Shown here piece by piece: positions 11,995-49,724 of a DNA stretch of 64,000 bases. Under the pieces are notes generated by a model. It saw only the letters and a program-made list of their open reading frames with translations, had not been told where the DNA came from and made no database searches. A program made the position numbers and the translations under genes. How positions within the stretch are numbered: the first letter of the stretch is position 1; each line of letters begins with the position of its first letter. This DNA is from a virus: IMG/VR virus record IMGVR_UViG_3300049048_000052, positions 86,643 through 150,642 of that record. One strand, written 5' to 3'.

Positions 11995-12041
11995 TCATAT
12001 ATGGAGGGGTAATCGCCTCTCCATATATCACAAGGAGCTAT

Positions 12042-12830
12042 ATGGATCTGGCAGTCAGGATCAAGGAATTCTATGAGTATGCATACCGCACCTTCCTACC
12101 CAGGAGGATGCCAGTCATACTTAGAGTAGATGGTAAGGCATTCCACTCTTATACAAGGGGTATGAATAGACCCTTTGATGAGAGATTGGAAGAAGTAATG
12201 AACCTTGTAGCTATTAAGCTATGTAAGGAAATACAAGGTGCTCAGATAGCCTATGTGCAATCTGATGAGATCAGTATATTAATTCATGGTTATAAGAAGC
12301 TCAATAGTGAGTCATGGTTTGGTAATAATGTACAGAAGATGACCAGTGTTAGTGCTGGTATAGCTAGTGCATGGTTTACCTACCACTCATCTAGGTTAAC
12401 TACTGTATCTGAGGATATAGGTAATACCCAACAGTTTATAGAATCTAAGCTAAAGCCAGCAGTATTTGACTCTAGGGTATTCGTACTCCCTGAATCAGAG
12501 GTATGTAACTACTTCATATGGAGACAGCAGGATGCTACTCGCAATAGTATCTCTATGCTTGCCCAGTCTTTATACTCCCATAAGGAGTTAAATGGGGTTA
12601 CATGTAATCAGATGCAGGAGCTCTGTTTCCAGAAGGGTCATAACTGGAATGATCTACCTATCATTAGAAAGAGGGGTAGATGTATTCGTAAGTTTATTAG
12701 GTATACACCTGTAGCTGGAAGACCTGAGGGTAATACAGTTGCTAGATCCTATTGGGATGTAGACTATGAGACTCCTATCTTTACTGAGAATCGTAACTAT
12801 ATTGAAGATCTATTAAAGACATATGAGTAG
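12042..12830 (+). CDS. Thg1-like protein (tRNA-His guanylyltransferase family, 3'-5' nucleotidyltransferase)
   Basis: N-terminus PVILRVDGKAFHSYTR...AYVQSDEISIL reproduces the Thg1 RVDGxxFH and SDE catalytic signatures with the correct spacing. Confidence 0.7.
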   Translation: MDLAVRIKEFYEYAYRTFLPRRMPVILRVDGKAFHSYTRGMNRPFDERLEEVMNLVAIKLCKEIQGAQIAYVQSDEISILIHGYKKLNSESWFGNNVQKMTSVSAGIASAWFTYHSSRLTTVSEDIGNTQQFIESKLKPAVFDSRVFVLPESEVCNYFIWRQQDATRNSISMLAQSLYSHKELNGVTCNQMQELCFQKGHNWNDLPIIRKRGRCIRKFIRYTPVAGRPEGNTVARSYWDVDYETPIFTENRNYIEDLLKTYE

Positions 12831-13221
12831 TATTAAAGAGGAGAGGGCCAGAGAACTGGCCGGGTATATATCCAAAATACTGAGAGTAGTAGGGCAAGCA
12901 GATATCTCACCCTCTTCCTCTGTTTACCACTATAGAGGAGGGGATAAATATCCCTTTATCCTTAGAGCCTGCATGGGACCTGTTAGTTTTGAATATGAGA
13001 CTAATGGACTAATCAGGAAGAAGAATAGCTACATGATAGAGGTCCTATCTCTAGGTGTTAAACAATGTTGGTTTAGACTAAGGATGTTCCCTAAAGTTAA
13101 GGGTGGCTATCGGTATAGGGTAGATACCTTATTAGAGGGCCCCTGGATTGAACAGCTAATGGACCTAAATAAACAGGTGCTGATACTTCAGACTACTAAG
13201 GATCTAATGACTATTAAATAG
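12823..13221 (+). CDS. hypothetical protein
   Basis: 132-aa ORF overlapping the Thg1-like stop; terminator follows. Confidence 0.45.
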   Translation: MSSIKEERARELAGYISKILRVVGQADISPSSSVYHYRGGDKYPFILRACMGPVSFEYETNGLIRKKNSYMIEVLSLGVKQCWFRLRMFPKVKGGYRYRVDTLLEGPWIEQLMDLNKQVLILQTTKDLMTIK

Positions 13222-13238: not shown

Positions 13239-13270
13239 GAGTAGGGTTGCAAACATCCTACTCATTTTCT
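13239..13270 (+). terminator. rho-independent terminator
   Basis: GAGTAGG GTTGCAAACAT CCTACTC then ATTTTCT. Confidence 0.6.
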
Positions 13271-17382: not shown

Positions 17383-17454
17383 GGGCTCATAGTTCAATGG
17401 ATAGAATGATTCCCTCCTAAGGATTAGATCTAGGTTCGATTCCTAGTGGGCCTG
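17383..17454 (+). tRNA. tRNA (anticodon CCU?, Arg)
   Basis: Acceptor GGGCTCA/TGGGCCT, D-arm GTTC/AATGGATA/GAAT, loop CTCCTAA, T-arm CTAGG/TTCGATT/CCTAG. Confidence 0.55.
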
Positions 17455-17525
17455 CTTTTTATATGGTGGTTTAGTTATAGTGGGTTCGATTCCCACACCA
17501 GGCGTTAGTTAATTAGGGATAATGT

Positions 17526-35300: not shown

Positions 35301-35863
35301 GATATAGATTGAATACAGAGGGACCTCAGGGTGCTGCGGCTGCGAAGCTTGTAGCTATAGTCGTAGGATCTATTAGCACCTTTATGCTATTAGTGTCCTT
35401 TGCTTACCTATTATTTGGTACGCCCTCAGGGGCTGCTGTCCTAGGTTGCATACTGGGTCTGTTATTGGGAGCTGGGGGTATTGTCCTCTCGGCCATCGGA
35501 TTCATTATGGGTGCCGTAGCTCAGGATGAAGATTAAGTAGTTATTAGGAGTATAGAGAATGCGTAGACATAGCAATGATGATTTCGATTCCATGTTTAAT
35601 AGCATGGCCGATACCATATCCAAGGCCCAGAGGAGAGCTAAGAGAATCTTCCTCATTCTAGGCCTGATATCGGTAAGTGCCCTGTTAGGCTGCTTTTGGG
35701 CTCTGTTTATGGGTAACCTGAGCATGTCCGCAACTGTGGGGGCCTGTCTAGGCATCCTGATTTCAGCACCATTAAGCTGGGTAAGTCTAGCAACTGTATT
35801 GGCTTCGAGTATTAAGGCATAGTTTGACTAACATGGGTATATAGAAGTATACTCATGTAACAT

Positions 35864-35944
35864 GGGTGGATGACCGAGAGGCCGATGGTGCCTGACTGTA
35901 AATCAGGTCGTAACAGCGCGCTGGTTCGAATCCAGCTCCACCCA
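35864..35944 (+). tRNA. tRNA-Tyr (GUA)
   Basis: Acceptor GGGTGGA/TCCACCC, class II D-arm CCGAGAGGCCGATGG, anticodon stem-loop CCTGA CTGTAAA TCAGG, long variable arm, T-arm GCTGG/TTCGAAT/CCAGC. Confidence 0.7.
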
Positions 35945-35953
35945 TTTCAATAA

Positions 35954-36036
35954 CGGCAGGCTAGGCGAGTTGGTGATCGCTGGGGAGTGTACAACCCTAC
36001 CTTATAGGAACGTTGGTTCGAATCCAACCCTGCTGA
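35954..36036 (+). tRNA. tRNA (long-variable-arm type, anticodon unresolved)
   Basis: Acceptor CGGCAGG/CCTGCTG, T-arm GTTGG/TTCGAAT/CCAAC, D-loop AGTTGGTGAT; anticodon arm could not be folded by hand. Confidence 0.4.
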
Positions 36037-36542
36037 TTCTACATAGTAAACAGGGGAATGTTATGGTGAGTCGTAGTGTCTACAGACTTACATATAGGTG
36101 TAAATGTAAGCACTGTAATAGACCATCGGAATATAAAAGCCATATGATTAGATCTGGCAATAAGAGATGCAGGGCCCTCAATAAGAAGGCCCTTAATAAT
36201 ATTAATATTGATGATGATACATATGATCCTATATTCGTTGATATAGGTTACACCGATTAAGGAGAAACAATATGCCACCAGAAGAGGAAGTTAATGATGA
36301 GGAAGTCACCAATCCAATCGAGGATGAAGTGGAGAGACAGAAGGCCATCTTTGGCTATGCTGATATCGATGAGAAAGCAGAGGAACTTAAAGTCCTCTTT
36401 GGCACTGACAGAGACTCTGCCTAGTATCGCGGTAATCATACTGGCCCTGTTTGCTATAGCGGCTAGTGCGGTGTATGGGATACCAGTATGACTAAATGCG
36501 AGGCGTGTAATGATAGTAAATGGTTGTACAGGAGTGTAAGGA

Positions 36543-36725
36543 ATGAGCAAGGTAATATCATCTGGGAACCAACAGAGTGCTTCTGCGTCCAAGAGGAAGC
36601 AACGGGGAGCCAACCTACTGGTGACGACGATCAGACACAACACCCGTTGTAATTGCGGCAGAGTTGTTAATGTAAGTAGGGAGGTGCTTAACTATAAGTG
36701 CCTTACTTGTTATATAGGTAATTGA
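36543..36725 (+). CDS. small Cys-rich (zinc-ribbon-like) protein
   Basis: 60 aa with CNCG...CLTC and an AGGAGTGTAAGGA ribosome-binding site; an overlapping alternative small ORF 36488..36651 also has a CxxC. Confidence 0.3.
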   Translation: MSKVISSGNQQSASASKRKQRGANLLVTTIRHNTRCNCGRVVNVSREVLNYKCLTCYIGN

Positions 36726-36787
36726 TTATTAGGACTCAGTAGGTAACCGCTTACTGAGTCTATTAACTTATTAGGAAGATACTTATT

Positions 36788-37132
36788 ATGTTGGTTAAGA
36801 TTAATGGGGAAGACCATATTATTGGATTCCACTATGTGAGATGCCCCCTTGGTGAGGCCCCTAAGAATAAACGGGAGGCTGATGTAGAACGGTCATATAT
36901 TATACAGAAGTTCTTTGAAGGTAAACTGCCTCCTTATAATAAGGATATGCACCCCTTCGCATCCATTTGTTATATTAAAAAGCAGGCCACTGGTGAAATG
37001 CTAGCTGCCGCAGTATCCATATGTATTGAAGAGGATAACTTCAGTAGGAAAGTTGGTAGAACTAAGTCTTATAACTCTCTATTAAAGATATTGAATATAG
37101 ATGCTGATAAGCTGGAGATTATTAATAAGTGA
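36788..37132 (+). CDS. hypothetical protein
   Basis: 114-aa ORF. Confidence 0.45.
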   Translation: MLVKINGEDHIIGFHYVRCPLGEAPKNKREADVERSYIIQKFFEGKLPPYNKDMHPFASICYIKKQATGEMLAAAVSICIEEDNFSRKVGRTKSYNSLLKILNIDADKLEIINK

Positions 37133-37659
37133 AGGTAGCCATTGGTACTCAAAGTGGTCCTAAGATAGAGTCTGTACTCAATGGATTTGAAGTACTAGGC
37201 CTAATCGCTATAGATATATATCCTAAGAATTGTATAACGGGAATAGTACAGCCCAAGTCCTTAAGTCAAATGGAGAACTGTGCTATGACAAGAATGGAGC
37301 AGTTGCAGGATGAATTTGGGGACTGTATCTATCATGTGGTAGTTGAGAGTGGCCTTATTCAAAAGAGGGCACCCATAGGTAATACTGAAACTACGCTTTG
37401 TCTCATTAAGCATGTGCCAACAGGTACTCTAGGTTATGGGACTGGGGGTGAATGGAGGGTACCTGAGTACATTATCGATCAGCTAAATGAATGTGGTGAG
37501 ATGGGTAAGACTCAGGTTAAGGGTGCTCAACCCTTAGATAAGCTAGCTATTGGTGGTAGTGTTATTGATGCTATCACAGGTGGGAGATGGAATAGGGTTG
37601 ACCAAATAGAGGTTGCCACTATACATGCCCTTGCTTATTTGTTACATGAAGTAGAATAG
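37129..37659 (+). CDS. hypothetical protein
   Basis: 176-aa ORF overlapping the previous stop; hairpin follows. Confidence 0.45.
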   Translation: MKVAIGTQSGPKIESVLNGFEVLGLIAIDIYPKNCITGIVQPKSLSQMENCAMTRMEQLQDEFGDCIYHVVVESGLIQKRAPIGNTETTLCLIKHVPTGTLGYGTGGEWRVPEYIIDQLNECGEMGKTQVKGAQPLDKLAIGGSVIDAITGGRWNRVDQIEVATIHALAYLLHEVE

Positions 37660-37686
37660 ATCATAGCCCCTTAAGTGGGGCACCAC

Positions 37687-37760
37687 GTCCCTGTGGTCCA
37701 ACTGGTAGAGGTAACGGACTTAAAATCCGTGTGTTGTGGGTTCGAATCCCACCAGGGACA
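37687..37760 (+). tRNA. tRNA (anticodon UAA; Leu by anticodon, but short variable arm)
   Basis: Acceptor GTCCCTG/CAGGGAC 7/7, anticodon stem-loop ACGGA CTTAAAA TCCGT, T-arm GTGGG/TTCGAAT/CCCAC. Confidence 0.6.
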
Positions 37761-37763
37761 TTT

Positions 37764-37837
37764 GCCGCAGTAGCCCAATTGGGTAGAGGCTGTAGGTTGA
37801 GGGCTTACATGTTACAGGTTCAAATCCTGTCTGCGGT
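37764..37837 (+). tRNA. tRNA (anticodon GAG?)
   Basis: Acceptor GCCGCAG/CTGCGGT, loop TTGAGGG between GTAGG and CTTAC, T-arm ACAGG/TTCAAAT/CCTGT. Confidence 0.55.
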
Positions 37838-37859
37838 ATTATCACTATAAAGGATATGT

Positions 37860-39884
37860 ATGTTTGAGCAATTAAGATCGGCCGTTAAGGCTCGTTTTGC
37901 TTCCCTCGTTGTAGGGAATGGTGAGAATATGTTTGTCCTGGATATCTCTAGGGATGATCTATGGAACACTTATATAACTGGATATCCAGAGGGCGCTGAA
38001 AGACAAGAGAACAACTGCAACGCCTGTAGATCTTTCATTAAGAATTATGGAGGTCTTGTATGGGTAGACCCCAACACCTATGAGCTCCATAATATCTGGC
38101 AGCTAGAAGGACCCATGGCTGACTATGGCCCAGTTAAGGCTCTGAGAGAATTGGTAGAACTAGCTACTATTCGGGATGCGTTCATTAACGATACCCGTAA
38201 GTTAGGTGTTGACTATAACTTCGCCGCTGAGAGTATGACCAAGTGGACACATCTCTTCTATGAGATGCCTAGGTCATTTCCTACGCAGGTACGTAGTGAA
38301 GTGCCTACCCTGCTTAATGATATTAGGACTGGTGCTAAGGCGTTTGAAAGGGCTCTAATTGAGCTAACTACAGACAGTGTAGAGACAGTCCTAGAACTCA
38401 TAGAGACTAACTCAATCTATCGAGGTGCTGAAAGTAAGGGGGTCCTTCAATCCTTCTTAACCCTAAAGCAGACCTATGATGCCTTACCAGATTACTCTAG
38501 GAAGCAAGCCTTCGCTTGGCTTACCTCTAGGAGGAATCCTGGTATAAGCCGTATCAAGAATACGGCTATCGGTACTCTGCTGGAGGATATATCTGGGGGC
38601 ATGGAGCTAACCCCTGCTGTTCACAGATTTGTGGATAAAATGGATCCCAATAAGTACCAGAGACGTACTGCTGTAGTATCCTCTGGTATGATCAAGCAGG
38701 CAGAGCAGAAAGTCCTAGAGTTAGGTCTGGATACAGCCTTAGCTAGACGACACTCGACCCTGGATGACCTGCGTATTGAGGATGTCCTCTATGTTAATAG
38801 AGATGCTGTCAAGGGAGCCCAGTCTCTCTTTGGTGAGATCATGGGAGAGGTAGAGACTAAGGTTGATCCCAAGAAGTTTGAGGACCTCAAGGATGTTACA
38901 GTAGATACGTTCCTAGAGAGTGTACTACCCGGTGCATCTAAGGTAGAGGTTCTCTTTGAGGGTAGACACTTCTCTAACCTGGTCAGCTTGACTACCGCAG
39001 TTAACCCTGATGCCAAGTATCTCTTCAAATGGGATAACCATCACTCCTGGTGTTACAATGGGGCCCTTGCGGACTCAAGTACTAAGGCTTTGGTTAAGGC
39101 GGCAGGTGGTCAAGTAGAGGGTATACTTCGGTGTTCTCTAGGTTGGGGCAATGGAGATGATCTAGACTTGCATCTTGAGGAACCTAACGGTTTCCATATT
39201 TACTTTGGATCTAAGAAATCTCCAACTGGAGGGGCCCTAGATGTAGATATGAATGCTGGCGGTATTGACAATAGTACCAACCCAGTAGAGAACATTATCT
39301 ACCCCTATGGTAGTAACATGAGGGAAGGGGTGTATAAGGTCTGGGTAAATAACTACTCTAAGAGATCCAACGATGGCTCTGGCTTTGAGGTAGAGATGGA
39401 GTTTGGGGGACGCATCCTGAAGTTTGTCCATCCTAAACCACTGACTAATCACTCTAGTTACACTGTAGCCACCTTCAGCTACAGCAAGACAAAAGGTATC
39501 GAGCTAATCTCAGGTACTCCAGACAGCACAGGCAGCCTAAGTAAGGAGATATGGGGTATCCAAACAGATACCTTCCATCCCGTGCAGGCTGTAACCCTAT
39601 CCCCCAACTATTGGGGAGATAAGCAAATAGGTAACAAACACATGTTCCTATTCATCGAGGCCTGTAAGAATGATGGCATCGTCCGAGGACTCTTTAATGA
39701 GTTCCTACGTCAGGAATTGGCCCCGCATAGGACCGCCTTTGAGTTATTAGGAGCCAAACTTCAGGTAGCCCAGAGTGATGGTCCTCAATTAAGCGGACTT
39801 GGCTTCTCATCCACTCAGGCTGCAGACTTTGTAGTCAGAGTGACCGGGAAGACGGTTCGTATGTTACGTGTGAAGACTTTGTAG
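37860..39884 (+). CDS. large hypothetical protein (674 aa)
   Basis: Longest ORF of the central region; no recognisable catalytic motif. Confidence 0.6.
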   Translation: MFEQLRSAVKARFASLVVGNGENMFVLDISRDDLWNTYITGYPEGAERQENNCNACRSFIKNYGGLVWVDPNTYELHNIWQLEGPMADYGPVKALRELVELATIRDAFINDTRKLGVDYNFAAESMTKWTHLFYEMPRSFPTQVRSEVPTLLNDIRTGAKAFERALIELTTDSVETVLELIETNSIYRGAESKGVLQSFLTLKQTYDALPDYSRKQAFAWLTSRRNPGISRIKNTAIGTLLEDISGGMELTPAVHRFVDKMDPNKYQRRTAVVSSGMIKQAEQKVLELGLDTALARRHSTLDDLRIEDVLYVNRDAVKGAQSLFGEIMGEVETKVDPKKFEDLKDVTVDTFLESVLPGASKVEVLFEGRHFSNLVSLTTAVNPDAKYLFKWDNHHSWCYNGALADSSTKALVKAAGGQVEGILRCSLGWGNGDDLDLHLEEPNGFHIYFGSKKSPTGGALDVDMNAGGIDNSTNPVENIIYPYGSNMREGVYKVWVNNYSKRSNDGSGFEVEMEFGGRILKFVHPKPLTNHSSYTVATFSYSKTKGIELISGTPDSTGSLSKEIWGIQTDTFHPVQAVTLSPNYWGDKQIGNKHMFLFIEACKNDGIVRGLFNEFLRQELAPHRTAFELLGAKLQVAQSDGPQLSGLGFSSTQAADFVVRVTGKTVRMLRVKTL

Positions 39885-39900
39885 TTGTAAGGAAAGACTA

Positions 39901-40290
39901 ATGCAAGACATGATGTATAAGAAGGCTGTTCGCATGAAGCTGCGTTTCCAGGCAGCTAAAGGGCAGATTACAATGGAGGACCTATATGGTCTTTCCTTGG
40001 AAGTCCTAAATGGCATGGCCAATGAGGTGAACGAACGCCTCAACAAGAATGCCGTCAGCTTCATCCCTGATGCCACCGTCAACAAGGGTAACGAAGAGGA
40101 TACACTAAGACTGGAGATCCTCAAGGATGTAATCCTGACTAAATATCAGGAGCAACAGGCCCGAGCCAATGCTGCAGAGTTAGCCCGTAGGAAACAAGAC
40201 CTTATGGATGCTTTCCATCAAGTGCAGCAGAAAGATCTCTTGAGTAAGACCCCTCAAGAGATTGAGGCAATGATTGCAGCCTTAGGATAG
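39901..40290 (+). CDS. hypothetical coiled-coil protein
   Basis: 129 aa, charged and helical; terminator hairpin follows. Confidence 0.45.
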   Translation: MQDMMYKKAVRMKLRFQAAKGQITMEDLYGLSLEVLNGMANEVNERLNKNAVSFIPDATVNKGNEEDTLRLEILKDVILTKYQEQQARANAAELARRKQDLMDAFHQVQQKDLLSKTPQEIEAMIAALG

Positions 40291-40364
40291 TCGATAACCT
40301 AGAGGGGGTAGTAATACCCCCTCAACGTCAAGGCTTAGTTACAATAGTTAGTTAGGAGATAACT

Positions 40365-40763
40365 ATGAGGAAGGCTAAAGCGACCAGGATAGGTTCTACG
40401 AAGAGTAGAATCTCAGTTAGTAGGAATGGTTTGTGGGAGGCTCAGGGGGCTATTGTAGCCTTAGCTGGGACTTTAGCCACAGATCCTTTCGTTATGGCTA
40501 ATCTACTTAGCATAAGGAAGAGATTACCACGGGCCCCTATTGCTCATACCTTAGAGGCATGTCAAAAGATCAGTGCTTCTCTAAGAGGAACCGCAATCTA
40601 CTTAAGACACGACACAACCAACGAGTTAGTAAAGGTGGTAAATGCCGCTCAGTTCTGCAGAGAACGAGGGCTACATAGCAATGGTAATGGTATAAGCATG
40701 ATGCTAAGAGGTAGCGTCAGGAGTTACCATGGGTGGCGGCTGGTAGGACAGAACGATTTATAG
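40365..40763 (+). CDS. hypothetical protein
   Basis: 132-aa ORF. Confidence 0.45.
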   Translation: MRKAKATRIGSTKSRISVSRNGLWEAQGAIVALAGTLATDPFVMANLLSIRKRLPRAPIAHTLEACQKISASLRGTAIYLRHDTTNELVKVVNAAQFCRERGLHSNGNGISMMLRGSVRSYHGWRLVGQNDL

Positions 40764-41150
40764 ATAAGATACAATAGGCCCTTGATCTTTATCTTGGGCC
40801 TTATAGAGGACAATAACTATGGCAAACGATTGGGATACTTTGGATAAAGGAATCGACGCCCTAGACCAAATTGTGACTAAGTGTGAGGAAGCTAAGTTTA
40901 ATTACTTCCATGGTGATAGTGATATTCATGATTTTGAGGGTGGTAGGCTAGTAGGTGCCTTTGAGTTAGCCCGTGAGATTATACATATAATAAGGAGCAT
41001 TAGGGATGACGGATCAGGAGAAACTGAAAGTAATTAAGGATATGTGTAATGGTGCCCTGAAGGAGACTTATGAGTCCTGGGATACAACTTGGGATTGCGG
41101 TTTCATATCAGGTAAAAAGGATTTATCAGAGAGTATATTGAAGGTCTTAG

Positions 41151-41750
41151 GTGATGGTTAAGAAAGTAAAAACTAGGTGTAAGAGAATCCTAGAAACGTA
41201 CGGGAGAAGATATAGCAATATAGTAGATAAGATGTCTGCTGCCCTAAGTTGTGAAGTATATAAGCTTTGTACCGATTGGAAGATTAACTTCAAACCACAG
41301 GTATTGTGGGGCCTTGGATTTACATGCGCCTATTCCTATAGAGGTAAAGAGATCCACTACAACATGGGAGTCAGCTTTGATAAAACCATCGAGGTTATGG
41401 ACCTAGACCTTTACAAAGCTATGGATACCTATGTAGGTCTAAAGTCACATACGCCCATTGGTAACCTAGTAAAGGACTGGGACTGTTCCTTACTTTATGA
41501 AGAAGAGGCTACCCTTATTAAGATTGGGACTGGCTTTAAGGATGACCCAAAAGGGAAAGAGTTAAGCCTGGTGGCTTGCAATGAGGACCTAATATTTGAA
41601 AGAGGTTTCAGTTATGTAGGTCCTGTATATAAGGATAGAGCGTTAGAAGTGGCTGAGGTTTACCAGAACAATCCTGAGCAAGGTAAATGGGCAGTAACAG
41701 GTCTAGGTTATTTTGGGCCTAATGAATTAGAGAAGCTAACTAAATCCTAG
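41151..41750 (+). CDS. hypothetical protein
   Basis: 199-aa ORF. Confidence 0.5.
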   Translation: MMVKKVKTRCKRILETYGRRYSNIVDKMSAALSCEVYKLCTDWKINFKPQVLWGLGFTCAYSYRGKEIHYNMGVSFDKTIEVMDLDLYKAMDTYVGLKSHTPIGNLVKDWDCSLLYEEEATLIKIGTGFKDDPKGKELSLVACNEDLIFERGFSYVGPVYKDRALEVAEVYQNNPEQGKWAVTGLGYFGPNELEKLTKS

Positions 41751-41776
41751 GATCTATGGTATACTCCATATACCAA

Positions 41777-41849
41777 CGGGGTGTAAGTCACCGGTAGACG
41801 TTCTGATTTGGGGTCAGAAAGAAGTTAGTTCGATTCTAACCATCCCGAC
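41777..41849 (+). tRNA. tRNA-Pro (UGG)
   Basis: Acceptor CGGGGTG/CATCCCG, anticodon stem-loop TCTGA TTTGGGG TCAGA, T-arm GTTAG/TTCGATT/CTAAC. Confidence 0.7.
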
Positions 41850-42178
41850 TTTACCTACAAATAGTCCATGGGTTACCCTCTATAATCACCAGTATTATAG
41901 AGAGGTACTGCTATGAGCTATGAGAGTCCTAATGATCTTATTGTGGGATTCTATGTCAATAGGATCTTAGAGTTAGCTGAGACAGACCCTGAGCTAGAGG
42001 AAACATTTGACTATATAGAGGAGAACCTTAGCGATGCTACTGAAGAGATCATAGCTGAGGTTACCATCAAGGTAGGTAGAAGATTAAAGGATAAACATAA
42101 GGGTAAGTACATATTGTTCTTAGTCTATATGTATGGACCTGATACTGAAGATATATTACAGATAGATAGGAAGATCAT

Positions 42179-42733
42179 ATGTTAATAGAGAGGCTCCTAA
42201 TGGAGGGGGCGGATGTATCTATATATTACATAGATAACCTTGATACGGCAATGTTAATGGATGAGTTAACAAAAGCTGTAGAATGGGATACTATGGGTGG
42301 TACTAGAAGGAAGATGGCATGGTTTGGAAGGGGAGAGTATACCTATCGGGATAGACTTCATAAACCTCAGGATATGCCATTGGTCGTTAAGATAGCTAAG
42401 GCACCAGTAGAACGAGTGACTGGCCACACCTACAATGGTTGTCTAGCTAATTGTTATGAGAATGGGAGGATAGGGGTTAACTGGCATTCAGATGATGAGT
42501 CTATACCAGGTTCACCTATAGCCATACTATCTCTAGGTGCAACCCGTACCTTTAGGATGATGCATAAAGTATTAGGTATCAGCAGGGAGTGGAGACTGGC
42601 AGCAGGTACTGTACTTGTCATGTCTGGTCCTACTCAAGAGAACTGGATGCATTGCATTCCTAAAGAGGGAGAAGTTAAAGAGGCTCGTATCAGTCTTACA
42701 TACAGACAAACTAAGTTGACCTCCGTAGATTGA
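42179..42733 (+). CDS. AlkB-like 2OG-Fe(II) dioxygenase (nucleic-acid demethylase family)
   Basis: NWHSDDE (HxD), SLGATRTF, WMHCIP (distal His) and RISLTYRQ (RxSxTxR) match the AlkB signature in order and spacing. Confidence 0.7.
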   Translation: MLIERLLMEGADVSIYYIDNLDTAMLMDELTKAVEWDTMGGTRRKMAWFGRGEYTYRDRLHKPQDMPLVVKIAKAPVERVTGHTYNGCLANCYENGRIGVNWHSDDESIPGSPIAILSLGATRTFRMMHKVLGISREWRLAAGTVLVMSGPTQENWMHCIPKEGEVKEARISLTYRQTKLTSVD

Positions 42734-42775
42734 GGGGTTATGCTTAGAGTATATAGTTAGTAATCTTATACTCTA

Positions 42776-43189
42776 ATGCATAGCAAGTCGAAGGGTAACA
42801 TAGGGCAGTTTTATGCTGCTGCTAAATTGGCCGAGTTAGAGTTCGCCGTATTCACTGAGGAGGGAGATAACTCCAAGGTGGATATAATAGGGGTTAAGGA
42901 TAATATAATACTTAGGTTTCAGGTAAAAGCTGTAACTCCTAAGAATAATACATTAGCTTTAATGCTGAAGAAATCTGGTCCTAATTATAAGTTTAAGTAT
43001 AAAGAGGAGATGTTTGACTACTTTATAGTAGTTGACCTTATTAGCTTTAAAGTATATGCTGTAAGTTCGGAGGTACTAAGAACCCATCAAGATACTTTTA
43101 CTATAAGATTAGTAGCAGCGAAAAACAAGCAGAGTTGTAATACGAATGAGGCAGACGATTACCTCATGGAGAAAGTTTTGGGTCATTAA
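42776..43189 (+). CDS. hypothetical protein (possible PD-(D/E)xK nuclease fold)
   Basis: 137 aa; SKVDIIGVKD...RFQVK spacing resembles a D...(D/E)xK core; weak. Confidence 0.35.
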   Translation: MHSKSKGNIGQFYAAAKLAELEFAVFTEEGDNSKVDIIGVKDNIILRFQVKAVTPKNNTLALMLKKSGPNYKFKYKEEMFDYFIVVDLISFKVYAVSSEVLRTHQDTFTIRLVAAKNKQSCNTNEADDYLMEKVLGH

Positions 43190-43252
43190 CTTAGCGGCTA
43201 AAGTACCTAGCTTTTAACTAGGGAACCGAAGGTTCGAGTCCTTCATGACCCA
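43180..43252 (+). tRNA. tRNA-Lys (UUU)
   Basis: Acceptor GGGTCAT/ATGACCC 7/7, D-arm ACTT/AGCGGCTA/AAGT, anticodon stem-loop CCTAG CTTTTAA CTAGG, T-arm GAAGG/TTCGAGT/CCTTC; its 5' end overlaps the stop of the preceding CDS. Confidence 0.7.
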
Positions 43253-43311
43253 CTGGTTCTATAAAATAGAACTGGTTGAGGGGGAGTGGTGTAATGGTAG
43301 CCACGCAGGTC

Positions 43312-43857
43312 TTAACTCATTGGAGTTAGTTGGTGTATTAGTTTATAAGCGTTCTTAACTAGATCTCTAGAGAGCATCTTACCACCAGATATCAATTTTA
43401 TAATTGGGTTCTTGCGTGAGTGGTCTAACTGAAATCTAGCTTGAGGATATAAGTCCAGGAAGGATGTGGCAGTATCTTTATTAGAGGCAGCTATTTCTAT
43501 CCTATAAGTCTTAACTTTATAGACTTGTACTAAAAGTTGCTTTATCAGATCTATTAAAGTAGGATCCTGGTTGCAGAAGTAAACATGATTTGTTTTATCT
43601 GTATGCCAGCCCTCACATAAATAGGCCGTATGGGCAGCAATGGAAAGAGGTGTTAGGAGTAAATCATCTGTAGGGGAGATATAGTTCTTCCTAGCTAGAA
43701 AGTTATACTCTGAGGCAGATCTCATTGGTATATGGTACTTCCTTAAGTAAGACCTAATAGTCTTATGGTTACAGGCTAGTAACTGACCTATCTGATAGGG
43801 ATTAAGTTCCTGAGTCAGGTATAGATCCTCAAGTACCTCTTTATTAATTAACTTCAT
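43312..43857 (-). CDS. intron-encoded protein, antisense (HTH plus LAGLIDADG-like, putative homing endonuclease)
   Basis: 181 aa inside the second tRNA intron; N-terminal helix-turn-helix-like segment and AYLCEGWHTDK, loosely resembling a single LAGLIDADG motif. Confidence 0.5.
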   Translation of the reverse strand: MKLINKEVLEDLYLTQELNPYQIGQLLACNHKTIRSYLRKYHIPMRSASEYNFLARKNYISPTDDLLLTPLSIAAHTAYLCEGWHTDKTNHVYFCNQDPTLIDLIKQLLVQVYKVKTYRIEIAASNKDTATSFLDLYPQARFQLDHSRKNPIIKLISGGKMLSRDLVKNAYKLIHQLTPMS

Positions 43858-44111
43858 AATCCTGAGCCTTCATGTAGAAATACATGTTGTGAACGAAGCT
43901 ATATGCGGGAAACGCTTAAAGCCTACAACACTATATGTCTACCAAGATATAAGTAACAGTTTGTAGGATGTAACAATAGCCAATCCGCAGGGAAGATACC
44001 TAGGTATCCCCTCAGAGACTAAACGCTTTGCACCTTAACGTAGAGACGAAGGTGATGATATAGTCCAGACTACAACAGCTTACGCTGGCCTATGAAAGTA
44101 GGAGTAGTAAG
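43314..44111 (+). mobile_element. group I-like intron in the tRNA-Leu anticodon loop (between nt 34 and 35)
   Basis: TCAGAGACTAAACGC (44012..44026) resembles R; GATGATATAGTCCAGACTACAACAGC (44054..44079) resembles S; terminal G; near-identical S region to the first intron. Confidence 0.55.
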
Positions 44112-44266
44112 AGGAACCTGTGCCGCAAGGCGTGAGAGTTCGAATCTCTCCTCCCCCATTTACAGTAGTGAGCACACGGTATGATGTAGGGTTCCCCCTA
44201 CTTGTACTAAGGCTAATACCTTTGCTATATTCACTACTGTAAACATATTGATTGTTTCTAATAATT

Positions 44267-44683
44267 ATGGAAACACAAATGGCATTATTTGGTTTTGGTG
44301 GTTCTAACTCTGCTATCGATGAGTTAAGCCGTGTCTTAGGTGCAAGTAGCTCTATTGCTAGCCAACAGAGTCCCCCGTATGAAATTGGGATCTCTGATCG
44401 TAAACTAGTAGTTAAGTTCATAGTACCTGGTATCGATAAGGATACTGTTGATGTGACCATCCATGATAAGTACGTAGAGCTATATGGCATGCGTAAGAAG
44501 GATGATAAGTTAGCAGTTGAACTGAGTGAGTTCTATTACGGTAAGGTTTATCGTACAGCCCCACTAAGTCAGAGAGTAGACAGAAACTCTGCCTCTGTAT
44601 CTTACTCAGATGGTATTCTGACTCTCTCTATGGATCTATTACCAGTTAATCCTCCCACTGCGGTTAGGGTTAAATTAGGTTAA
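44267..44683 (+). CDS. Hsp20/alpha-crystallin family small heat-shock protein
   Basis: Alpha-crystallin-domain-like blocks (KFIVPGIDKDTVDVTIHDKYVELYG..., SVSYSDGILTLSM); ATG at 44267 preferred over the listed TTG. Confidence 0.55.
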   Translation: METQMALFGFGGSNSAIDELSRVLGASSSIASQQSPPYEIGISDRKLVVKFIVPGIDKDTVDVTIHDKYVELYGMRKKDDKLAVELSEFYYGKVYRTAPLSQRVDRNSASVSYSDGILTLSMDLLPVNPPTAVRVKLG

Positions 44684-44705
44684 ACATTATAGGAGTTATT
44701 GATCT

Positions 44706-45218
44706 ATGCAGTTAAACATTATGAGTGGTTCTACGGGGGATCCACCTTGGAGAACAGATGATGTGGGTAGGCGTATCCCAGACCGAACTGGGACAACTAA
44801 GGGTGGTTATATACCGGACTATCCTGGTATCGGTTTCCCTAAGCCTCCTAATACTTTCTATCACCTAATTAACTCAACCTATAAGGCACCTGCTGATATA
44901 CCATGTGATGCTAATAGTGTTGGCACTCAGTTCATCGCTGTGTTCAACTTGGGTGGTGTAAGGAAGGAGGATATTGATATCACTGTCCATCCTGACAGAG
45001 TAGAGATATCTGCTACTAGAAGTCTCAGCGGCCCTAAGTCGTTGAGTCTTTATAGTAGTGAAGTCTCCTGCGGTAAGCTAAGGCGCACCATCCCATTTGA
45101 GGATACTAAGGTCAACATCGAGACAGCTAAGGCTGACTATGATAATGGACTGGTAACTCTCACAATGGACCTGCTTCAACCTAAGCCGCCACCGGCCGTC
45201 AAGGTAGAAATCAAATAA
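44706..45218 (+). CDS. Hsp20/alpha-crystallin family protein (second copy)
   Basis: FIAVFNLGGVRKEDIDITVHPDRVEIS...DYDNGLVTLTM parallels the previous gene. Confidence 0.5.
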   Translation: MQLNIMSGSTGDPPWRTDDVGRRIPDRTGTTKGGYIPDYPGIGFPKPPNTFYHLINSTYKAPADIPCDANSVGTQFIAVFNLGGVRKEDIDITVHPDRVEISATRSLSGPKSLSLYSSEVSCGKLRRTIPFEDTKVNIETAKADYDNGLVTLTMDLLQPKPPPAVKVEIK

Positions 45219-45280
45219 GAAGGATACCTTCCTTACTGTATAACTGCTATAGTTATCATTAGTAAGGAAGGTATTAACTT
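45219..45280 (+). terminator. long stem-loop (terminator or RNA structure)
   Basis: ATACCTTCCTTACT ... AGTAAGGAAGGTAT, a 14-bp stem enclosing a 24-nt loop with its own mini-hairpin. Confidence 0.4.
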
Positions 45281-45282
45281 AT

Positions 45283-45630
45283 ATGGAAATGGATATATTT
45301 AGCCCCTCAAGACTCGTCTGTATTCACTATGGAAATAATGCTATAGATGAGATAATGGATGGTAGAGCTGAGGAAGCCCTAGATAAACTAGAGAAGGCTC
45401 GTGAGGATGATATGTTCGATATGGAGCATTATCAATCTATACTGCTCTATGTGGGTGCATGCCTTAAACAAGAGAGCATGGGCCATTATATACAATTCCT
45501 ATTGACTATCTTTGATGAAGATGATATTACTAGTATTAACACCGCAGATTCTAAGGTCAATGGTGTCCTAGCGGAAGCGGCAGCAATCCATAGCGGGGAT
45601 GGAGCAACGGGAGGCTCGATGGTCTCATAA
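45283..45630 (+). CDS. hypothetical protein
   Basis: 115 aa, preceded by a 14-bp-stem hairpin. Confidence 0.4.
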   Translation: MEMDIFSPSRLVCIHYGNNAIDEIMDGRAEEALDKLEKAREDDMFDMEHYQSILLYVGACLKQESMGHYIQFLLTIFDEDDITSINTADSKVNGVLAEAAAIHSGDGATGGSMVS

Positions 45631-45666
45631 GCCATACATCGCTGAGTTCAATTCTCAGCCCCGACA
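45593..45666 (+). tRNA. tRNA-like (anticodon CAU) with imperfect acceptor stem
   Basis: D-arm GAGC/AACGGGAG/GCTC, anticodon stem-loop ATGGT CTCATAA GCCAT, T-arm CTGAG/TTCAATT/CTCAG. The acceptor pairs only 5/7 and the loop overlaps the TAA stop of CDS 45283..45630. Confidence 0.35.
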
Positions 45667-45898
45667 TTGTCAGTTTACCTGTCCTGACGTTGTGAAAAGA
45701 TAGGTGTAGGTCATAGGCCTAACTAGCAAGAATTGAGTTCGAATCTCAACAGGTCCATTTCGAGGGCCTGACTTGGTAATCGATTGTTAGCATGAGGAAC
45801 TATGACTGAAGGTGTGTACAACCAAAGTACAGAACAACAAGTGCAACCAATAACATTGTACCCTTCTCAAGGGTAAGTTCTATAGTAGTGTAATCTAC

Positions 45899-46663
45899 TC
45901 AGGCGTTTAGTATACTAAACGCCTGCTCTTTTTTACGCATACAGTAGGGACCACCTAAGTTATATAACCTAAATATAAAAGTCTTAAGGATTTTACCTTG
46001 AAAGGAGAAACCGTACTGATTATTCCAGTTGGGATTCTTACTTTGCAAGTCCCTCATATGTACATTAAGGGATATATCTAGTAGTTTGTTGAGCCTAGAG
46101 GCTAGAGTATACATAAAAGACTTTGAGCATCCATAGGCTGTAAGTCTACGGGAGGACCAACACCCGTCAGAGTCTAGATATCCTCTAATGAAATCTAACT
46201 CGTAGACGCTGTCTATAAGAGGCTCAGGGTAAATCATAGTCTTGGACTTATTACTTTCTAACTTTAGGATAGTAGTTAGATCTCTATGTAGACTAGTGGA
46301 ACATATAGCGAGCTGAAGACAGTTAGAAGCTATATTCCTTATTTTATAATCGGTATTGAGGTTAGATTGTATCTGTTCTAGAATATCCCTGTCCGAGGTA
46401 GTAAATACTATCTGACATCCATTTCTATGTAAGTGACCATCCCCATACAATACACCTAACATCCAAGCTTTAAAGGTGTCCATAGGGAACAATTTATAGT
46501 TCTTAAGCTTAGATAATGGCTTATAGGACATTGCCCCGGAGCTCTGCAGGACTTTGTATATACAATAAGAGGATAGCCCTAATTTAGAACTAATATTTGT
46601 AACAGACTGACCCTCCTTATACATAGTTATAATAGGCGTTGGGTTAATATGAGTAGATTTCAT
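45899..46663 (-). CDS. LAGLIDADG homing endonuclease (two-motif type)
   Basis: WMLGVLYGDGHL and FIRGYLDSDGCW are the two LAGLIDADG motifs; N-terminal HTH-like segment. Confidence 0.7.
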   Translation of the reverse strand: MKSTHINPTPIITMYKEGQSVTNISSKLGLSSYCIYKVLQSSGAMSYKPLSKLKNYKLFPMDTFKAWMLGVLYGDGHLHRNGCQIVFTTSDRDILEQIQSNLNTDYKIRNIASNCLQLAICSTSLHRDLTTILKLESNKSKTMIYPEPLIDSVYELDFIRGYLDSDGCWSSRRLTAYGCSKSFMYTLASRLNKLLDISLNVHMRDLQSKNPNWNNQYGFSFQGKILKTFIFRLYNLGGPYCMRKKEQAFSILNA

Positions 46664-47486
46664 AAAATTTGTATTGACTACATGCTTATATTACTAAAGT
46701 AATATAGGAAAGAGTGGGTTAATGTTCGTACCCTTTGCACGCACCCGCGTAGCAGTAGGTTAATTTAGAGAGGGCTCCTTGGGGGGGCCCTTTCACATTA
46801 GGAGGGTGTATGGACTCTGATCTCTTAGAGAAGTGGATACTACAATTCTTGGCAGAGCACAAAGGGAATCCTAGACTAGTAACCCAAATACTACACGGTG
46901 TAAGGATGGATAGTCTAGGTGCGGACTACATTCAAGTAGGTAAGGCTTTACGTACTTTAAAGGTAAAGGGTCTTATCAAAGTACATAAGATGTATCTAGG
47001 TCAGCATTCAAAGAGGTGGCGGCCCTGCTATGAGTTAGAGGAGGTATTCTTAAATGAATATTGATACATGTTCCTATGTATTAAATATTGTTGATAGAAT
47101 ATGTCACAGGATACTGTTATACTTATTGGCAACAGCTATAATACATCTATTACTAGAGCGCTTGGGTATAGGCGCATGGTTAATAGAGGCCGCAGTATTG
47201 GCTACCTATAGTATAATAGCTGTGCTTGATATAAACCTTTGTATCCGTATCCAAAAGAAAGATGAATAATCTAGATGAGATCGAGCAGGTGTTGGCTTAC
47301 TTTGGGTTCGTAGAGAAGCTATTCGTAGGAGTACTACTCTCCTTGTTAGCTGTTATCTTAATTAGATCCTGTACTATACCGTGGTTAGATGTAACCATAG
47401 CTATATTAGGAGGGCTGGTTATACCAGTTGCTACCTTATGGTATATAGACAGTTGTAGTAGTAAATGGAGAGACTGGTAAATACCT

Positions 47487-47559
47487 GCCACCTAGGCCAA
47501 ATGGTGCGGCGGTGAGTTCATACCTCACTTATAGTAAGTTCGATTCTTACAGGTGGTAT
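47487..47559 (+). tRNA. tRNA (anticodon CAU; Met or Ile2)
   Basis: Acceptor GCCACCT/AGGTGGT, anticodon stem-loop GTGAG TTCATAC CTCAC, T-arm GTAAG/TTCGATT/CTTAC. Confidence 0.6.
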
Positions 47560-47578
47560 TGTCGAGTTAAAGGAATAT

Positions 47579-47998
47579 ATGAGTCTTAGTCAGCAAGTAA
47601 AAGATTTCTTAAGTGTGGCCCCAGCTAGCTGGATTCCTCCAAGGAAACTTATCACTACTAAGTTGAGAGAGCCTATCAAGGGATGTCCTCAACTGAATGT
47701 TTACCCCCTGAACCAAGTACTAGAAATTAGCATGGATGGGGCACCCTTCTATCAACCCAATACTATATGTAGACTAACGGATTCAGATTTCCAGTTCACT
47801 ATGGTCTACGTTCCAGGAAGGGGTCCCATAGAAGTCTATGTGATTAAAGATCAGAGTACTGCCTATGTGTTTGAGGATCAGGTAGAGGCCTTTGCATTCC
47901 TCTACACTATTAAGCCCTACGAGCTAACTCAACTGGACGGAGATCCAACCTATGAGTGGGCACAGTTCAGATCTCACCTAGCCCCAGTACCCGCTTGA
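47579..47998 (+). CDS. hypothetical protein
   Basis: 139-aa ORF followed by a perfect 22-nt palindrome. Confidence 0.45.
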   Translation: MSLSQQVKDFLSVAPASWIPPRKLITTKLREPIKGCPQLNVYPLNQVLEISMDGAPFYQPNTICRLTDSDFQFTMVYVPGRGPIEVYVIKDQSTAYVFEDQVEAFAFLYTIKPYELTQLDGDPTYEWAQFRSHLAPVPA

Positions 47999-48033
47999 TA
48001 TAATTATGACTACAGTATATACTGTAGTCACTG

Positions 48034-48105
48034 GCACCCTACCCCTATATGGTGAGGGACCTGCCTTGTAAGCAGGACAACACAGTTCGAGTCTGTGAGG
48101 GTGCT
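48034..48105 (+). tRNA. tRNA-Thr (UGU)
   Basis: Acceptor GCACCCT/AGGGTGC 7/7, D-arm CCCT/ATATGGTG/AGGG, anticodon stem-loop CCTGC CTTGTAA GCAGG, T-arm CACAG/TTCGAGT/CTGTG. Confidence 0.7.
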
Positions 48106-48419
48106 TTTATATGTGCCTATCTTATTCAGTCGGCATATGTAACTATATAAATATCTCCATCAAACTGATAGAGTCATAGAGCCTATATGGTCTCTGACTA
48201 AGAGCTGATACGGATGGAATATTGGGGGATAGGTACTCCCGATGAGGGCCCCAGCTCTCAACACAAATATCAGCTCTCCTAGCAACTAACTGGCTTATGC
48301 TAACCCTTAATCAGGTAATCATATATTGGTTCAACTCCAATAGTTGCTTTTCCCAGTCGCATAACTTGCGTTCCCAACTGGGATTCTTAGCAATGGTTGG
48401 CTTAGTCCAATCATTTCTT

Positions 48420-48492
48420 GAGGCTGTCGTCTAAAATGGTAGGACTCCCCAAGTTAGTGGGGCAGATGTAGGTTCAAATCCTACCGGCTTCA
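48420..48492 (+). tRNA. tRNA with non-canonical anticodon loop
   Basis: Acceptor GAGGCTG/CGGCTTC, D-arm GTCT/AAAATGGTA/GGAC, stem CCCCA/TGGGG enclosing a 6-nt loop AGTTAG (or 4-bp stem plus 8-nt loop), T-arm GTAGG/TTCAAAT/CCTAC. Confidence 0.45.
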
Positions 48493-48497
48493 TTTAT

Positions 48498-48569
48498 GCA
48501 GTGTTGGTCTAATGGATAAGACGTCTCCAAACTAAGGAGTTAATGTAGGTTCGATTCCTGCTAACTGCG
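48498..48569 (+). tRNA. tRNA (anticodon unresolved)
   Basis: D-arm GTCT/AATGGATA/AGAC, T-arm GTAGG/TTCGATT/CCTGC, acceptor 5/7 paired. Confidence 0.45.
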
Positions 48570-48955
48570 TTTGTGATTTATACAACTTAATATAGTGACC
48601 ATAATCACCCCACATTACACAAAGCATATCCTCTTAATATTCAGTATTAACTACTGTAGGTATTAGAGGATATTATGAGTAAGTGGGAATGTCCCCAACA
48701 ATGCCCCTATCAGGCAGATGATTCTAAGTGGCCCCATATCCGACTCTTCCTCTTAACTGTGGTTGCGGTCGGCATCCTCTGGGGAACAAAGATATATAAG
48801 CAGCAGGACATAGAACCAGCTGATTGGGGTATAGGCTTAACGGCCCTAGTCCTAGCATCTAATCACCCTGAGACCCTACACAAGATAACTACTAAGGCAG
48901 CTAATAAGTTATTGGACTTAAACCCTGCGGAGGAAGATGAAAGTGAGGGAAGATA

Positions 48956-49513
48956 ATGACAAGTACAACGTCCTTAAGCCGCTTCCTAGAGTGGCTTAAG
49001 AGTCTGTTCTATAAGAAATCTAAGGGTGAAAAGAGCCATGTCAGGATTATTGAAGAAATTAAGAGTCCTATATCCAGGACTATTCGGATTAACAGGGATT
49101 ACCCAGGGGCAGTTGATACCTGGAAGTCCATACCAATGTATGAGTCAGCCTATGACTTTTATTGCCTCGTTGATAGAACGAAGCGGGAGGAAATGGGCCG
49201 AGATAACCTGTTCTTGCGAGCAGGCAATACCACTATACGAGTTAGAGCTGATCCAAGGAGTGGACTGGGAGGGGATATTAACTCTTCACATAGAATCACA
49301 ATCGTTGGAGTCTCAAGACTACCAATAGGTAAAGGTCAGTATCAAACTGAGGTCCTATATGTAGGCCTATTTAATCTAGTTAAGTCCTTCAATTCATATG
49401 ATAGTGTAGCTAAGGTCTTAGCTCATCGTATAGCTAAAAAGATGAGTGTTGTTATAGTTGATAATATGGATTGGTGTACATTTATAAATGATGAGAAGAA
49501 TAGGTTGATATAA
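48956..49513 (+). CDS. hypothetical protein
   Basis: 185-aa ORF overlapping the stop of 48675..48956. Confidence 0.45.
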   Translation: MTSTTSLSRFLEWLKSLFYKKSKGEKSHVRIIEEIKSPISRTIRINRDYPGAVDTWKSIPMYESAYDFYCLVDRTKREEMGRDNLFLRAGNTTIRVRADPRSGLGGDINSSHRITIVGVSRLPIGKGQYQTEVLYVGLFNLVKSFNSYDSVAKVLAHRIAKKMSVVIVDNMDWCTFINDEKNRLI

Positions 49514-49579
49514 TGATTCTCTATTAGTTACTTTAGGACCTCAGGGTGATTACCTTGGGGTCTTATCTTTAGGAGGGAT

Positions 49580-49724
49580 ATGTCTAGGAGTGATCCTTTA
49601 CCTGTTACTTGTCAGACCTGTAAGGGCCATGGTAAGTTGTTTGATAGGAGACCAGGTCGTGGGGATGGCAAGAAGTGCTATGAGTGTGATGGCAGTGGTT
49701 TCTCAGTGCAGTCTAATGATTAAA
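49580..49724 (+). CDS. small DnaJ-type zinc-finger protein
   Basis: 48 aa with two CxxCxGxG repeats (CQTCKGHG, CYECDGSG). Confidence 0.4.

Follow-up and report, generated by a model that had tools for sequence, protein, structure and literature searches.

A predicted Thg1-like 3'-to-5' RNA polymerase of the bacterial tRNA-repair type encoded by a jumbo phage

The Thg1-like gene and its product

A gene for a Thg1-like protein (TLP) was analyzed in a 64,000-nt stretch of viral DNA (positions 86,643 to 150,642 of IMG/VR record IMGVR_UViG_3300049048_000052), hereafter referred to as the window, which derives from a jumbo phage of approximately 252 kb (represented by contigs of 183 kb and 252 kb), has a G+C content of 42.5% and carries nearly all of its genes on the plus strand. 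The open reading frame (ORF) has the coordinates, strand, start codon and length proposed for it in a first-pass annotation made from the sequence alone. The gene and its product present the following features:

12042..12830, plus strand: coding sequence of the TLP, ATG start, 262 amino acids (ORF call plus profile, structure and alignment matches)
12031..12036, plus strand: Shine-Dalgarno sequence AAGGAG, 5 nt 5' of the TLP ATG, read from the sequence
Residues ~11-150: catalytic palm domain, followed by a C-terminal domain to about residue 258
Key residues: E12, R28, D30, F34, H35, S74, D75, E76, K99, R145, R161, M172

Both motifs on which the first-pass annotation had drawn are present, RVDGxxFH as R28-V29-D30-G31-K32-A33-F34-H35, with the D30 codon (GAT) at 12129-12131, and SDE as S74-D75-E76 at 12261-12269.

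Family assignment, predicted fold and active site

The single Pfam match of the protein is PF04446 (Thg1), at 99.7 bits versus a curated cutoff of 29.2 (E 1.6e-28), with residues 11-150 aligned to profile positions 7-130 of 130, and the PHROG profile search returned PHROG 4717, 'tRNA-His guanylyltransferase', over residues 2-259 (E 2.4e-85). Among solved structures, the best match by sequence was the Bacillus thuringiensis TLP (BtTLP; 4KGK/4KGM), with an E-value of 3e-63 and 217 bits over residues 6-257, as compared to 32-46 bits for the eukaryotic Thg1 enzymes and the archaeal TLP 5AXK; the match to MaTLP in the same search reached 41.6 bits. NCBIfam contained no model matching the protein. 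PF14413 (Thg1C), which had been suggested as a second possible Pfam match, was absent at E-values up to 1; despite this, the C-terminal half of the phage TLP can be aligned to that of BtTLP and overlaid on it in structure. The proposed check of Thg1 family membership was therefore answered concordantly by PF04446, PHROG, PDB sequences and the predicted fold, and the family identification is correct because a Thg1 profile match was found. As far as can be judged from its sequence, the gene product is an intact Thg1-like 3'-to-5' RNA polymerase that belongs with the bacterial enzymes of tRNA 5'-end repair.

An AlphaFold2 model built on a 35-sequence alignment (mean predicted local distance difference test score, pLDDT, 90.3; predicted template modelling score, pTM, 0.88) presents the full-length, two-part Thg1/TLP fold. 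The top 32 matches of this model in a Foldseek search against the PDB were all Thg1 or TLP chains, the best being 4KGM, with a template modelling score of 0.82 (query-normalised) or 0.93 (target-normalised) and a root-mean-square deviation of 2.2 Å.

Residue roles were taken from BtTLP (PMC3701042), and the phage protein was aligned with BtTLP and 119 homologues. The Thg1 superfamily has three conserved carboxylates, D29/D76/E77 in hTHG1 and D30/D75/E76 in BtTLP, two of which bind the catalytic metals (PMC3701042). All three are present in the phage TLP (D30, D75 and E76) and are invariant in 119/119 homologues. Conservation extends to E12, R28, F34, H35, T38, L49, S74 and K99, as well as to R145, R161 and M172, which correspond to R131, R147 and M158 of BtTLP. 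The residues named for BtTLP (E12, R28, D30, H35, S74, D75, E76, R131, R147 and M158) are kept in 113-119 of the 119 homologues, and the set assigned to the activation step and to nucleotidyl transfer (R28, H35, K43, S74, K99, R131 and R147, in BtTLP numbering) is conserved with the exception of K43. With these residues in place, catalytic activity of the phage TLP is very probable.

The position of the Thg1 activation Asn is occupied by a TLP-type Met (M172, BtTLP M158), and Met is found there in 113/119 homologues. In the region of the WRQxD motif and of the HINNLYN segment that follows it in Thg1, the phage TLP reads WRQQDATRNSISM, versus WRQ(V/A)DCHINNLY in C. albicans and human Thg1. Since it lacks a HINNLYN segment, has no Thg1C match and is far closer to BtTLP, the phage protein is assigned on these features as a bacterial-type TLP and not as a bona fide eukaryote-type Thg1.

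Comparison with characterized enzymes and distribution in phages

The phage protein is homologous to BtTLP over its full length, with an identity of about 43-50% (BLAST/HMMER and Foldseek alignments differ on the value). The two share the same predicted fold, and the equivalents of D30/D75/E76, R28, H35, S74, K99 and R131/R147, together with the TLP-type Met, are identical. They differ in two surface insertions of the phage protein, one of ~14 residues around 113-137, where the model has its lowest confidence (pLDDT ~64), and one of ~10 residues around 222-233, in the presence of R43 instead of K43, and in being a jumbo-phage as opposed to a bacterial gene. According to the BtTLP study (PMC3061083), 3'-5' addition by BtTLP is strictly Watson-Crick templated and its kinetic preference is for 5'-truncated tRNAs of any identity. 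The tested bacterial and archaeal TLPs all act in this manner, and their in vivo substrates are described as unresolved in a review (PMC6471195).

With the eukaryotic Thg1 enzymes (human 3OTB, C. albicans 3WBZ and yeast 5XOX), the phage TLP shares the superfamily and the catalytic core of the palm domain, with E-values of 1e-9 to 6e-11 by sequence and of ~1e-15 by Foldseek. It differs from them in an overall identity of only ~20-23%, in carrying DATRNSISM instead of HINNLYN, and in the missing PF14413 match. By homology, the phage enzyme would be expected to be strictly template-dependent, and not to perform G-1 addition opposite A73 as Thg1 does.

TLP homologues were identified by tblastn in 164 GenBank phage records, mostly Bacillus myophages, with further copies in Prevotella, Caulobacter, Mycobacterium, Brevundimonas, Erwinia and Vibrio phages, and nearly all are named tRNA-His guanylyltransferase. 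The phage genes of PHROG 4717 and the GenBank genes of that name (for example those of Bacillus phages PK-3, Goe8 and Bc431v3, and of phage G) belong to the same family and length class and, like the gene analyzed here, reside in large tailed phages rich in tRNA genes. The TLP differs from the GenBank phage copies in that identity is at most 52% and flanking genes are not shared. The nearest metagenomic protein presents 63% identity; the exact protein is already annotated as tRNA(His) guanylyltransferase by the Joint Genome Institute (JGI), on a contig of 251,780 bp, and at least 7,999 proteins match the TLP at E <1e-10. A megablast search with 3 kb around the TLP gene found no DNA-level relative among 50,697 phage records, and hence the phage is not in GenBank. 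An attempt to derive the host from cellular homologues was uninformative: the 21 matches, at 51% identity or less, were all contigs of metagenome-assembled genomes from scattered phyla, many of which are probably binned phage DNA. An affiliation of the TLP with defence systems was also considered and rejected, since the PADLOC defence families, including mCpol-like palm polymerases, gave no match at E-values up to 0.01.

RNA-repair genes and TLP neighbourhoods

The genome of the phage encodes further components of an RNA-repair toolkit, none of which adjoins the TLP gene in the window:

60317..61435, plus strand: RlaP-family Pol-beta nucleotidyltransferase (RNA-ligase-associated RNA-repair nucleotidyltransferase; phrog_388; PF10127, 68.3 bits)
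61425..61925, plus strand: phosphatase (phrog_335), its ORF overlapping the RlaP gene by 11 nt
L083 6819-7847, outside the window, ~15 kb upstream of the TLP: RNA ligase (PF09414 plus PHA02142)

The phosphatase is probably the end-healing partner of RlaP. This RNA ligase is encoded, together with an R2K ATP-grasp protein, ~3 kb before the window begins. Iyer et al. (2021) place Thg1 among the jumbo-phage RNA-repair enzymes that restore 5' nucleotides, beside RlaP and the CCA-adding enzyme (PMC7824862), within a toolkit that includes Rnl, RtcB, RlaP, the CCA-adding enzyme and PTH2, and the linkage of Thg1 to polynucleotide kinase (PNK), Macro and RNA ligase had earlier led Anantharaman et al. 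(2010) to propose that it takes part in tRNA repair (PMC2904730).

Gene neighbourhoods were surveyed in 80 IMG/VR loci carrying relatives of the TLP at 39-56% identity, mostly from contigs of 100-450 kb, by clustering the ORFs within 5 kb on either side of the TLP and annotating the recurrent clusters. Neighbourhoods are highly variable, with the commonest neighbouring family occurring in 9/80 loci. The recurrent neighbours that could be annotated have largely tRNA or RNA-repair functions:

L026, L048 and L051: RNA ligase (PF09414), 20 nt upstream of the TLP
L079: RNA ligase (PF09414), 357 nt from the TLP
Five loci: peptidyl-tRNA hydrolase PTH2, within 5 kb of the TLP
Five loci: P-loop kinase plus HD phosphohydrolase, within 5 kb of the TLP
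L025: RlaP, overlapping the TLP, directly after two tRNA-Thr genes

Genes for tRNAs are found within 5 kb of the TLP in 13/80 loci, and within 1.5 kb in 11/80, and in six loci (L013, L017, L018, L020, L028 and L043) the TLP lies inside a tRNA array. When all of these are combined, 27 of the 80 loci present tRNA genes, RNA ligase, PTH2, kinase-HD or RlaP within 5 kb of the TLP.

In those six loci and in L060, one or two tRNAs that carry the anticodon CUA (labelled 'tRNA-Pyl' by ARAGORN; amber suppressors) come immediately after the TLP, located at ~11.2-11.8 kb in the six loci and at 8.3 kb in L060. This arrangement suggests that these loci belong to stop-codon-recoded phages that have their TLP in the tRNA array.

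tRNA genes of the window and their acceptor stems

The first-pass annotation had described a genome with many tRNA genes, and this description holds: ARAGORN identifies 13 tRNAs and a permuted transfer-messenger RNA (tmRNA), and Rfam adds one interrupted tRNA, for at least 14 in all. The genes are distributed as follows:

17383..17455, plus strand: tRNA-Arg(CCT), the nearest tRNA gene, 4.5 kb downstream of the TLP; G1.U72; candidate substrate class only
35863..50277, plus strand: dispersed tRNA region with 12 ARAGORN tRNAs and the permuted tmRNA-like gene; candidate substrates; no tRNA-His
45668-45984, plus strand: permuted (two-piece) tmRNA-like gene called by ARAGORN, tag ATNNIVPFSRVSSIVV
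25754-25925, plus strand: interrupted tRNA-like gene, Rfam 38.7 bits, not called by ARAGORN

The annotated name of the family raises the possibility of a dedicated tRNA-His enzyme, which would add or restore G-1 opposite C73 on phage or host tRNA-His for charging by histidyl-tRNA synthetase. JGI, PHROG and GenBank annotations all use the guanylyltransferase name, Iyer et al. mention 'especially the histidinyl tRNA' (PMC7824862), BtTLP can add a G-1 templated by C73 (PMC3061083), and a tRNA-His gene lies within 10 kb of the TLP in 4/80 related loci. All four of these tRNA-His genes, however, encode G at -1, and three of them have C73; transcription and RNase P processing thus provide G-1, in the ordinary bacterial fashion. 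No tRNA-His gene was found in the ~81 kb of the genome that were read (the window, L083 and L084). Homologues of the TLP occur in 13 Caulobacter and 7 Brevundimonas phage records, yet Caulobacter tRNA-His lacks G-1 (PMC3064791). Also at odds with this role are the DATRNSISM segment found in place of HINNLYN, the far greater similarity to the repair-type BtTLP, and the kinetic preference of the latter for truncated tRNAs whatever their identity (PMC3061083). A role confined to G-1 of tRNA-His is therefore unlikely, though the TLP may serve as a back-up in G-1 maintenance.

ARAGORN draws acceptor stems of 8 bp for 8/13 tRNAs, in which the discriminator finds a pairing partner in the base encoded at -1 (T-1:A73 in most cases). 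These were considered as tRNA-His-like stems and discarded: the Rfam boundaries give 7 bp, and the -1:73 pair was taken as an extension of the drawing.

The odd acceptor stems that the first-pass annotation had attributed to some of these tRNAs are real insofar as 4/13 have a non-Watson-Crick 1:72 pair; they are, for the most part, G1.U72 wobbles on 7-bp stems. The wobble is found in 3/13 tRNAs (Arg-CCT at 17383, Leu-GAG at 37764 and Met at 47487), and the fourth is a low-scoring Met-like tRNA at 45592 that combines A1xC72 with G2xA71. The latter is marginal, with 30.7 bits in Rfam versus a cutoff of 29 and an alternative register, and it abuts the tmRNA-like gene.

Such stems could be substrates of programmed 5'-editing, in which mismatched 5' nucleotides are removed and re-synthesised on the 3' strand, as in amoebozoan mitochondria. 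Dictyostelium mitochondrial TLPs perform exactly this repair (PMC6471195), TLP genes lie within tRNA arrays in several phages, and in the window the non-Watson-Crick 1:72 pairs of four tRNAs, one of them with two consecutive terminal mismatches, could be read in the same way. The phage TLP resembles the mitochondrial 5'-editing polymerase DdiTLP3 of Dictyostelium in that the same templated 3'-5' refilling of the acceptor stem would be expected on any tRNA. It differs in that no editing nuclease partner was identified and in that the tRNAs linked to phage TLPs do not concentrate mismatches at pairs 1-3. Among 154 distinct tRNAs from TLP-carrying loci, true mismatches were found in 9/462 cases at pairs 1-3 and in 16/616 at pairs 4-7, and hence the signature of mitochondrial editing is absent. 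G.U pairs at 1:72 were only mildly raised (22/154, versus 7-18 at other positions), acceptor stems tolerate G.U pairs, and the doubly mismatched tRNA is the marginal one beside the tmRNA-like gene. No candidate 5' nuclease partner is conserved beside the TLP. The flat distribution of acceptor mismatches led us to reject 5'-editing as a general explanation, and we regard it as very improbable for this phage; the mismatch statistics likewise lend no support to the earlier suggestion that the TLP matures phage tRNAs with non-Watson-Crick 1:72 pairs.

Several other properties of the tRNA and tmRNA genes were recorded. The tmRNA-like gene falls below the Rfam threshold with concordant calls (tmRNA_permuted, 45 bits versus a cutoff of 47; cyano_tmRNA, E 1e-9), and a permuted tmRNA in the phage could hint at a host lineage among the cyanobacteria or the alpha/beta-proteobacteria. 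The aberrant tRNA-Met-like gene directly 5' of it spans 45591-45667 and has terminal acceptor mismatches. The interrupted tRNA-like gene at 25754 has the acceptor GCCAGTG/CACTGGC and the anticodon loop CTCTCAG, with anticodon CTC (Glu) and not His, and carries between anticodon stem and T-arm an insert of ~100 nt that resembles a long hairpin. The tRNA at 48420-48492 (plus strand) has G3.U70, the pair that specifies alanine identity; its anticodon loop, AGTTAG, seems to comprise only 6 nt, and ARAGORN assigns it no anticodon. Anticodon and body type disagree in the tRNAs at 37687-37839, 48497-48570 and 50196-50277. Leu(TAA), Leu(GAG) and Ser(ACT), of 74, 77 and 74 nt, are without the long variable arm of class II tRNAs, and Arg(TCT), of 82 nt, has one; acceptor pairs 6 and 7 of Ser(ACT) are mismatched as well (G.A and T.T). 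Two tRNA-Tyr(GTA) genes are arranged in tandem at 35863-36036, the second of which has C1-G72 (the archaeal/eukaryotic type for Tyr) and a weakened anticodon stem, and is not among the Rfam matches above gathering threshold.

Proposed function in tRNA 5'-end repair

We consider it most likely that the phage TLP acts within the RNA-repair kit of the phage, refilling 5'-truncated tRNAs by template-dependent 3'-5' addition. We infer its enzymatic activity from an identity of about 45-50% to BtTLP, and its biological role, including tRNA as the in vivo substrate and a counter-defence rationale, from genomic context and literature. The reading of the gene as a tRNA 5'-end repair function, possibly in counter-defence, which was already put forward in the first-pass annotation, is in line with comparative genomics in the literature (PMC7824862) and with what surrounds the gene in relatives.

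By homology to BtTLP, the protein would catalyse 3'-to-5' RNA polymerisation with a palm domain and two metal ions. ATP or GTP would first activate the 5'-monophosphate of a 5'-truncated tRNA; an incoming nucleoside triphosphate, Watson-Crick paired to the nucleotide of the 3' acceptor strand, would then attack the activated end with its 3'-OH; and, following removal of pyrophosphate, the cycle would be repeated until the acceptor stem is refilled. The TLP would thus constitute the 5'-end-restoring arm of a scattered toolkit for RNA repair and the maintenance of translation, comprising the RNA ligase, the RlaP nucleotidyltransferase and phosphatase, many tRNAs and the tmRNA-like gene. With these components, the phage would preserve a functional pool of host and/or phage tRNAs while infection proceeds, plausibly in the face of tRNA-damaging nucleases of the host or of competitors. 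The presumed logic, the restoration of tRNAs damaged in infection, is shared with the T4-type tRNA repair system (Pnkp and Rnl1), with the difference that the phage TLP would heal missing 5' nucleotides and not seal breaks in the anticodon loop. We know of no host nuclease trimming tRNA 5' ends that would be its cognate.

Several considerations weigh against tRNA 5'-end repair. The activation-step lysine, K43, is replaced by Arg in the phage TLP; among the 119 homologues this position is R in 78 and K in 34, making R the majority residue of the clade. A literature search found no experimental study, biochemical or genetic, of any phage TLP. In 53/80 related loci, the 5 kb on either side of the TLP contain neither tRNA nor repair genes, and the proximity seen in 27/80 is supportive, not statistical, evidence. 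In the window itself, the neighbours of the TLP are ORFans and the repair genes lie 15-48 kb away, leaving the local context uninformative.

The variable ORFan neighbourhood and the sporadic occurrence of the gene among phages could also be accounted for by a dispensable, horizontally acquired 'moron', or by an enzyme with non-tRNA substrates, such as small RNAs of the phage or the 5' termini of mRNAs or of the two-piece tmRNA-like RNA, there being a precedent in DdiTLP4, which acts on non-tRNA substrates (PMC6471195). Strong purifying conservation nevertheless affects the catalytic residues in at least 119 homologues, and 45 columns of the 35-sequence alignment are invariant, which argues against a decaying passenger, and the annotatable recurrent neighbours are tRNA and RNA-repair genes. 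We assign these explanations a low probability.

Immediate neighbourhood of the TLP gene

Three features flank the TLP gene:

11997..12028, plus strand: perfect hairpin (14-bp stem, 4-nt loop), 3' of the stop codon of the preceding ORF (11994) and 5' of the TLP ribosome-binding site
12823..13221, plus strand: 132-amino-acid ORF that begins within the TLP gene, overlapping its 3' end by 8 nt
13239..13263, plus strand: first terminator-like hairpin with a T-rich tail, of modest stability (z -2.5), 3' of the TLP/132-amino-acid ORF pair

The hairpin at 11997-12028 is the strongest nearby, with a folding free energy of -27 kcal/mol and a z-score of -6.3, and 0/200 shuffled sequences fold as well. 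Since no T-tract comes after it, it does not qualify as a canonical intrinsic terminator; it may act in the stability or processing of the transcript. Its interpretation as a recurrent regulatory element was rejected, since the count of the motif in the window equals chance expectation. Downstream, the gene had been reported to precede a terminator, which is wrong: the 132-amino-acid ORF intervenes, and the first T-tailed hairpin appears only after it. Given the 8-nt overlap, this ORF is probably co-transcribed and translationally coupled with the TLP. It is an ORFan, without Pfam, PHROG or PADLOC match, and is absent from 80/80 related TLP loci. The upstream ORFs, described initially as several hypothetical genes, indeed have no Pfam or PHROG match. 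A tblastn search of five flanking ORFs against the 80 TLP-carrying viral loci gave zero matches, and a conserved two-gene module formed by the TLP and a partner was consequently rejected.

Additional features of the window

A papain-fold cysteine peptidase, C39-like/AvrRpt2-like, is encoded on the minus strand at 59510-60274 amid plus-strand genes. On the plus strand, the region 53617-57156 contains a ThiF/E1-like protein (55117-55821) between proteins of 495 and 444 amino acids that have no Pfam or PHROG match; the region is located upstream of a class II ribonucleotide reductase and may represent a ubiquitin-like or adenylation module. Two group I introns score above the Rfam gathering threshold, both on the plus strand. 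The first, at 33837-34513, holds a minus-strand ORF of 156 amino acids (33898-34368) with a weak HNH_2 match, and the second, at 43845-44086, abuts a minus-strand ORF of 181 amino acids (43312-43857).

Significance

Taken by itself, the identification of this gene is of little weight, for the family is already annotated in GenBank phages (at least 164 of them), is represented by a dedicated PHROG, has given this exact protein its name at JGI, and features in the literature on jumbo-phage RNA repair. The phage TLP is a fairly divergent addition to a family already annotated widely in large phages, and an intact, divergent copy from a tRNA-rich jumbo phage makes it a reasonable, though not unique, enzyme to study. 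We deem it rather improbable that the TLP acts in counter-defence against an undescribed nuclease that trims the 5' acceptor strand, or that it converts the aberrant tRNAs of the phage (those with G1.U72, and the A1xC72/G2xA71 Met-like tRNA beside the tmRNA-like gene) into functional molecules; if true, the second of these would for the first time extend tRNA 5'-editing beyond the organelles of eukaryotes. The phage TLPs found beside RNA ligases, RlaP, PTH2 and tRNA arrays could lead to the discovery of a kind of 5'-end damage that tRNAs suffer when phage and host are in conflict.

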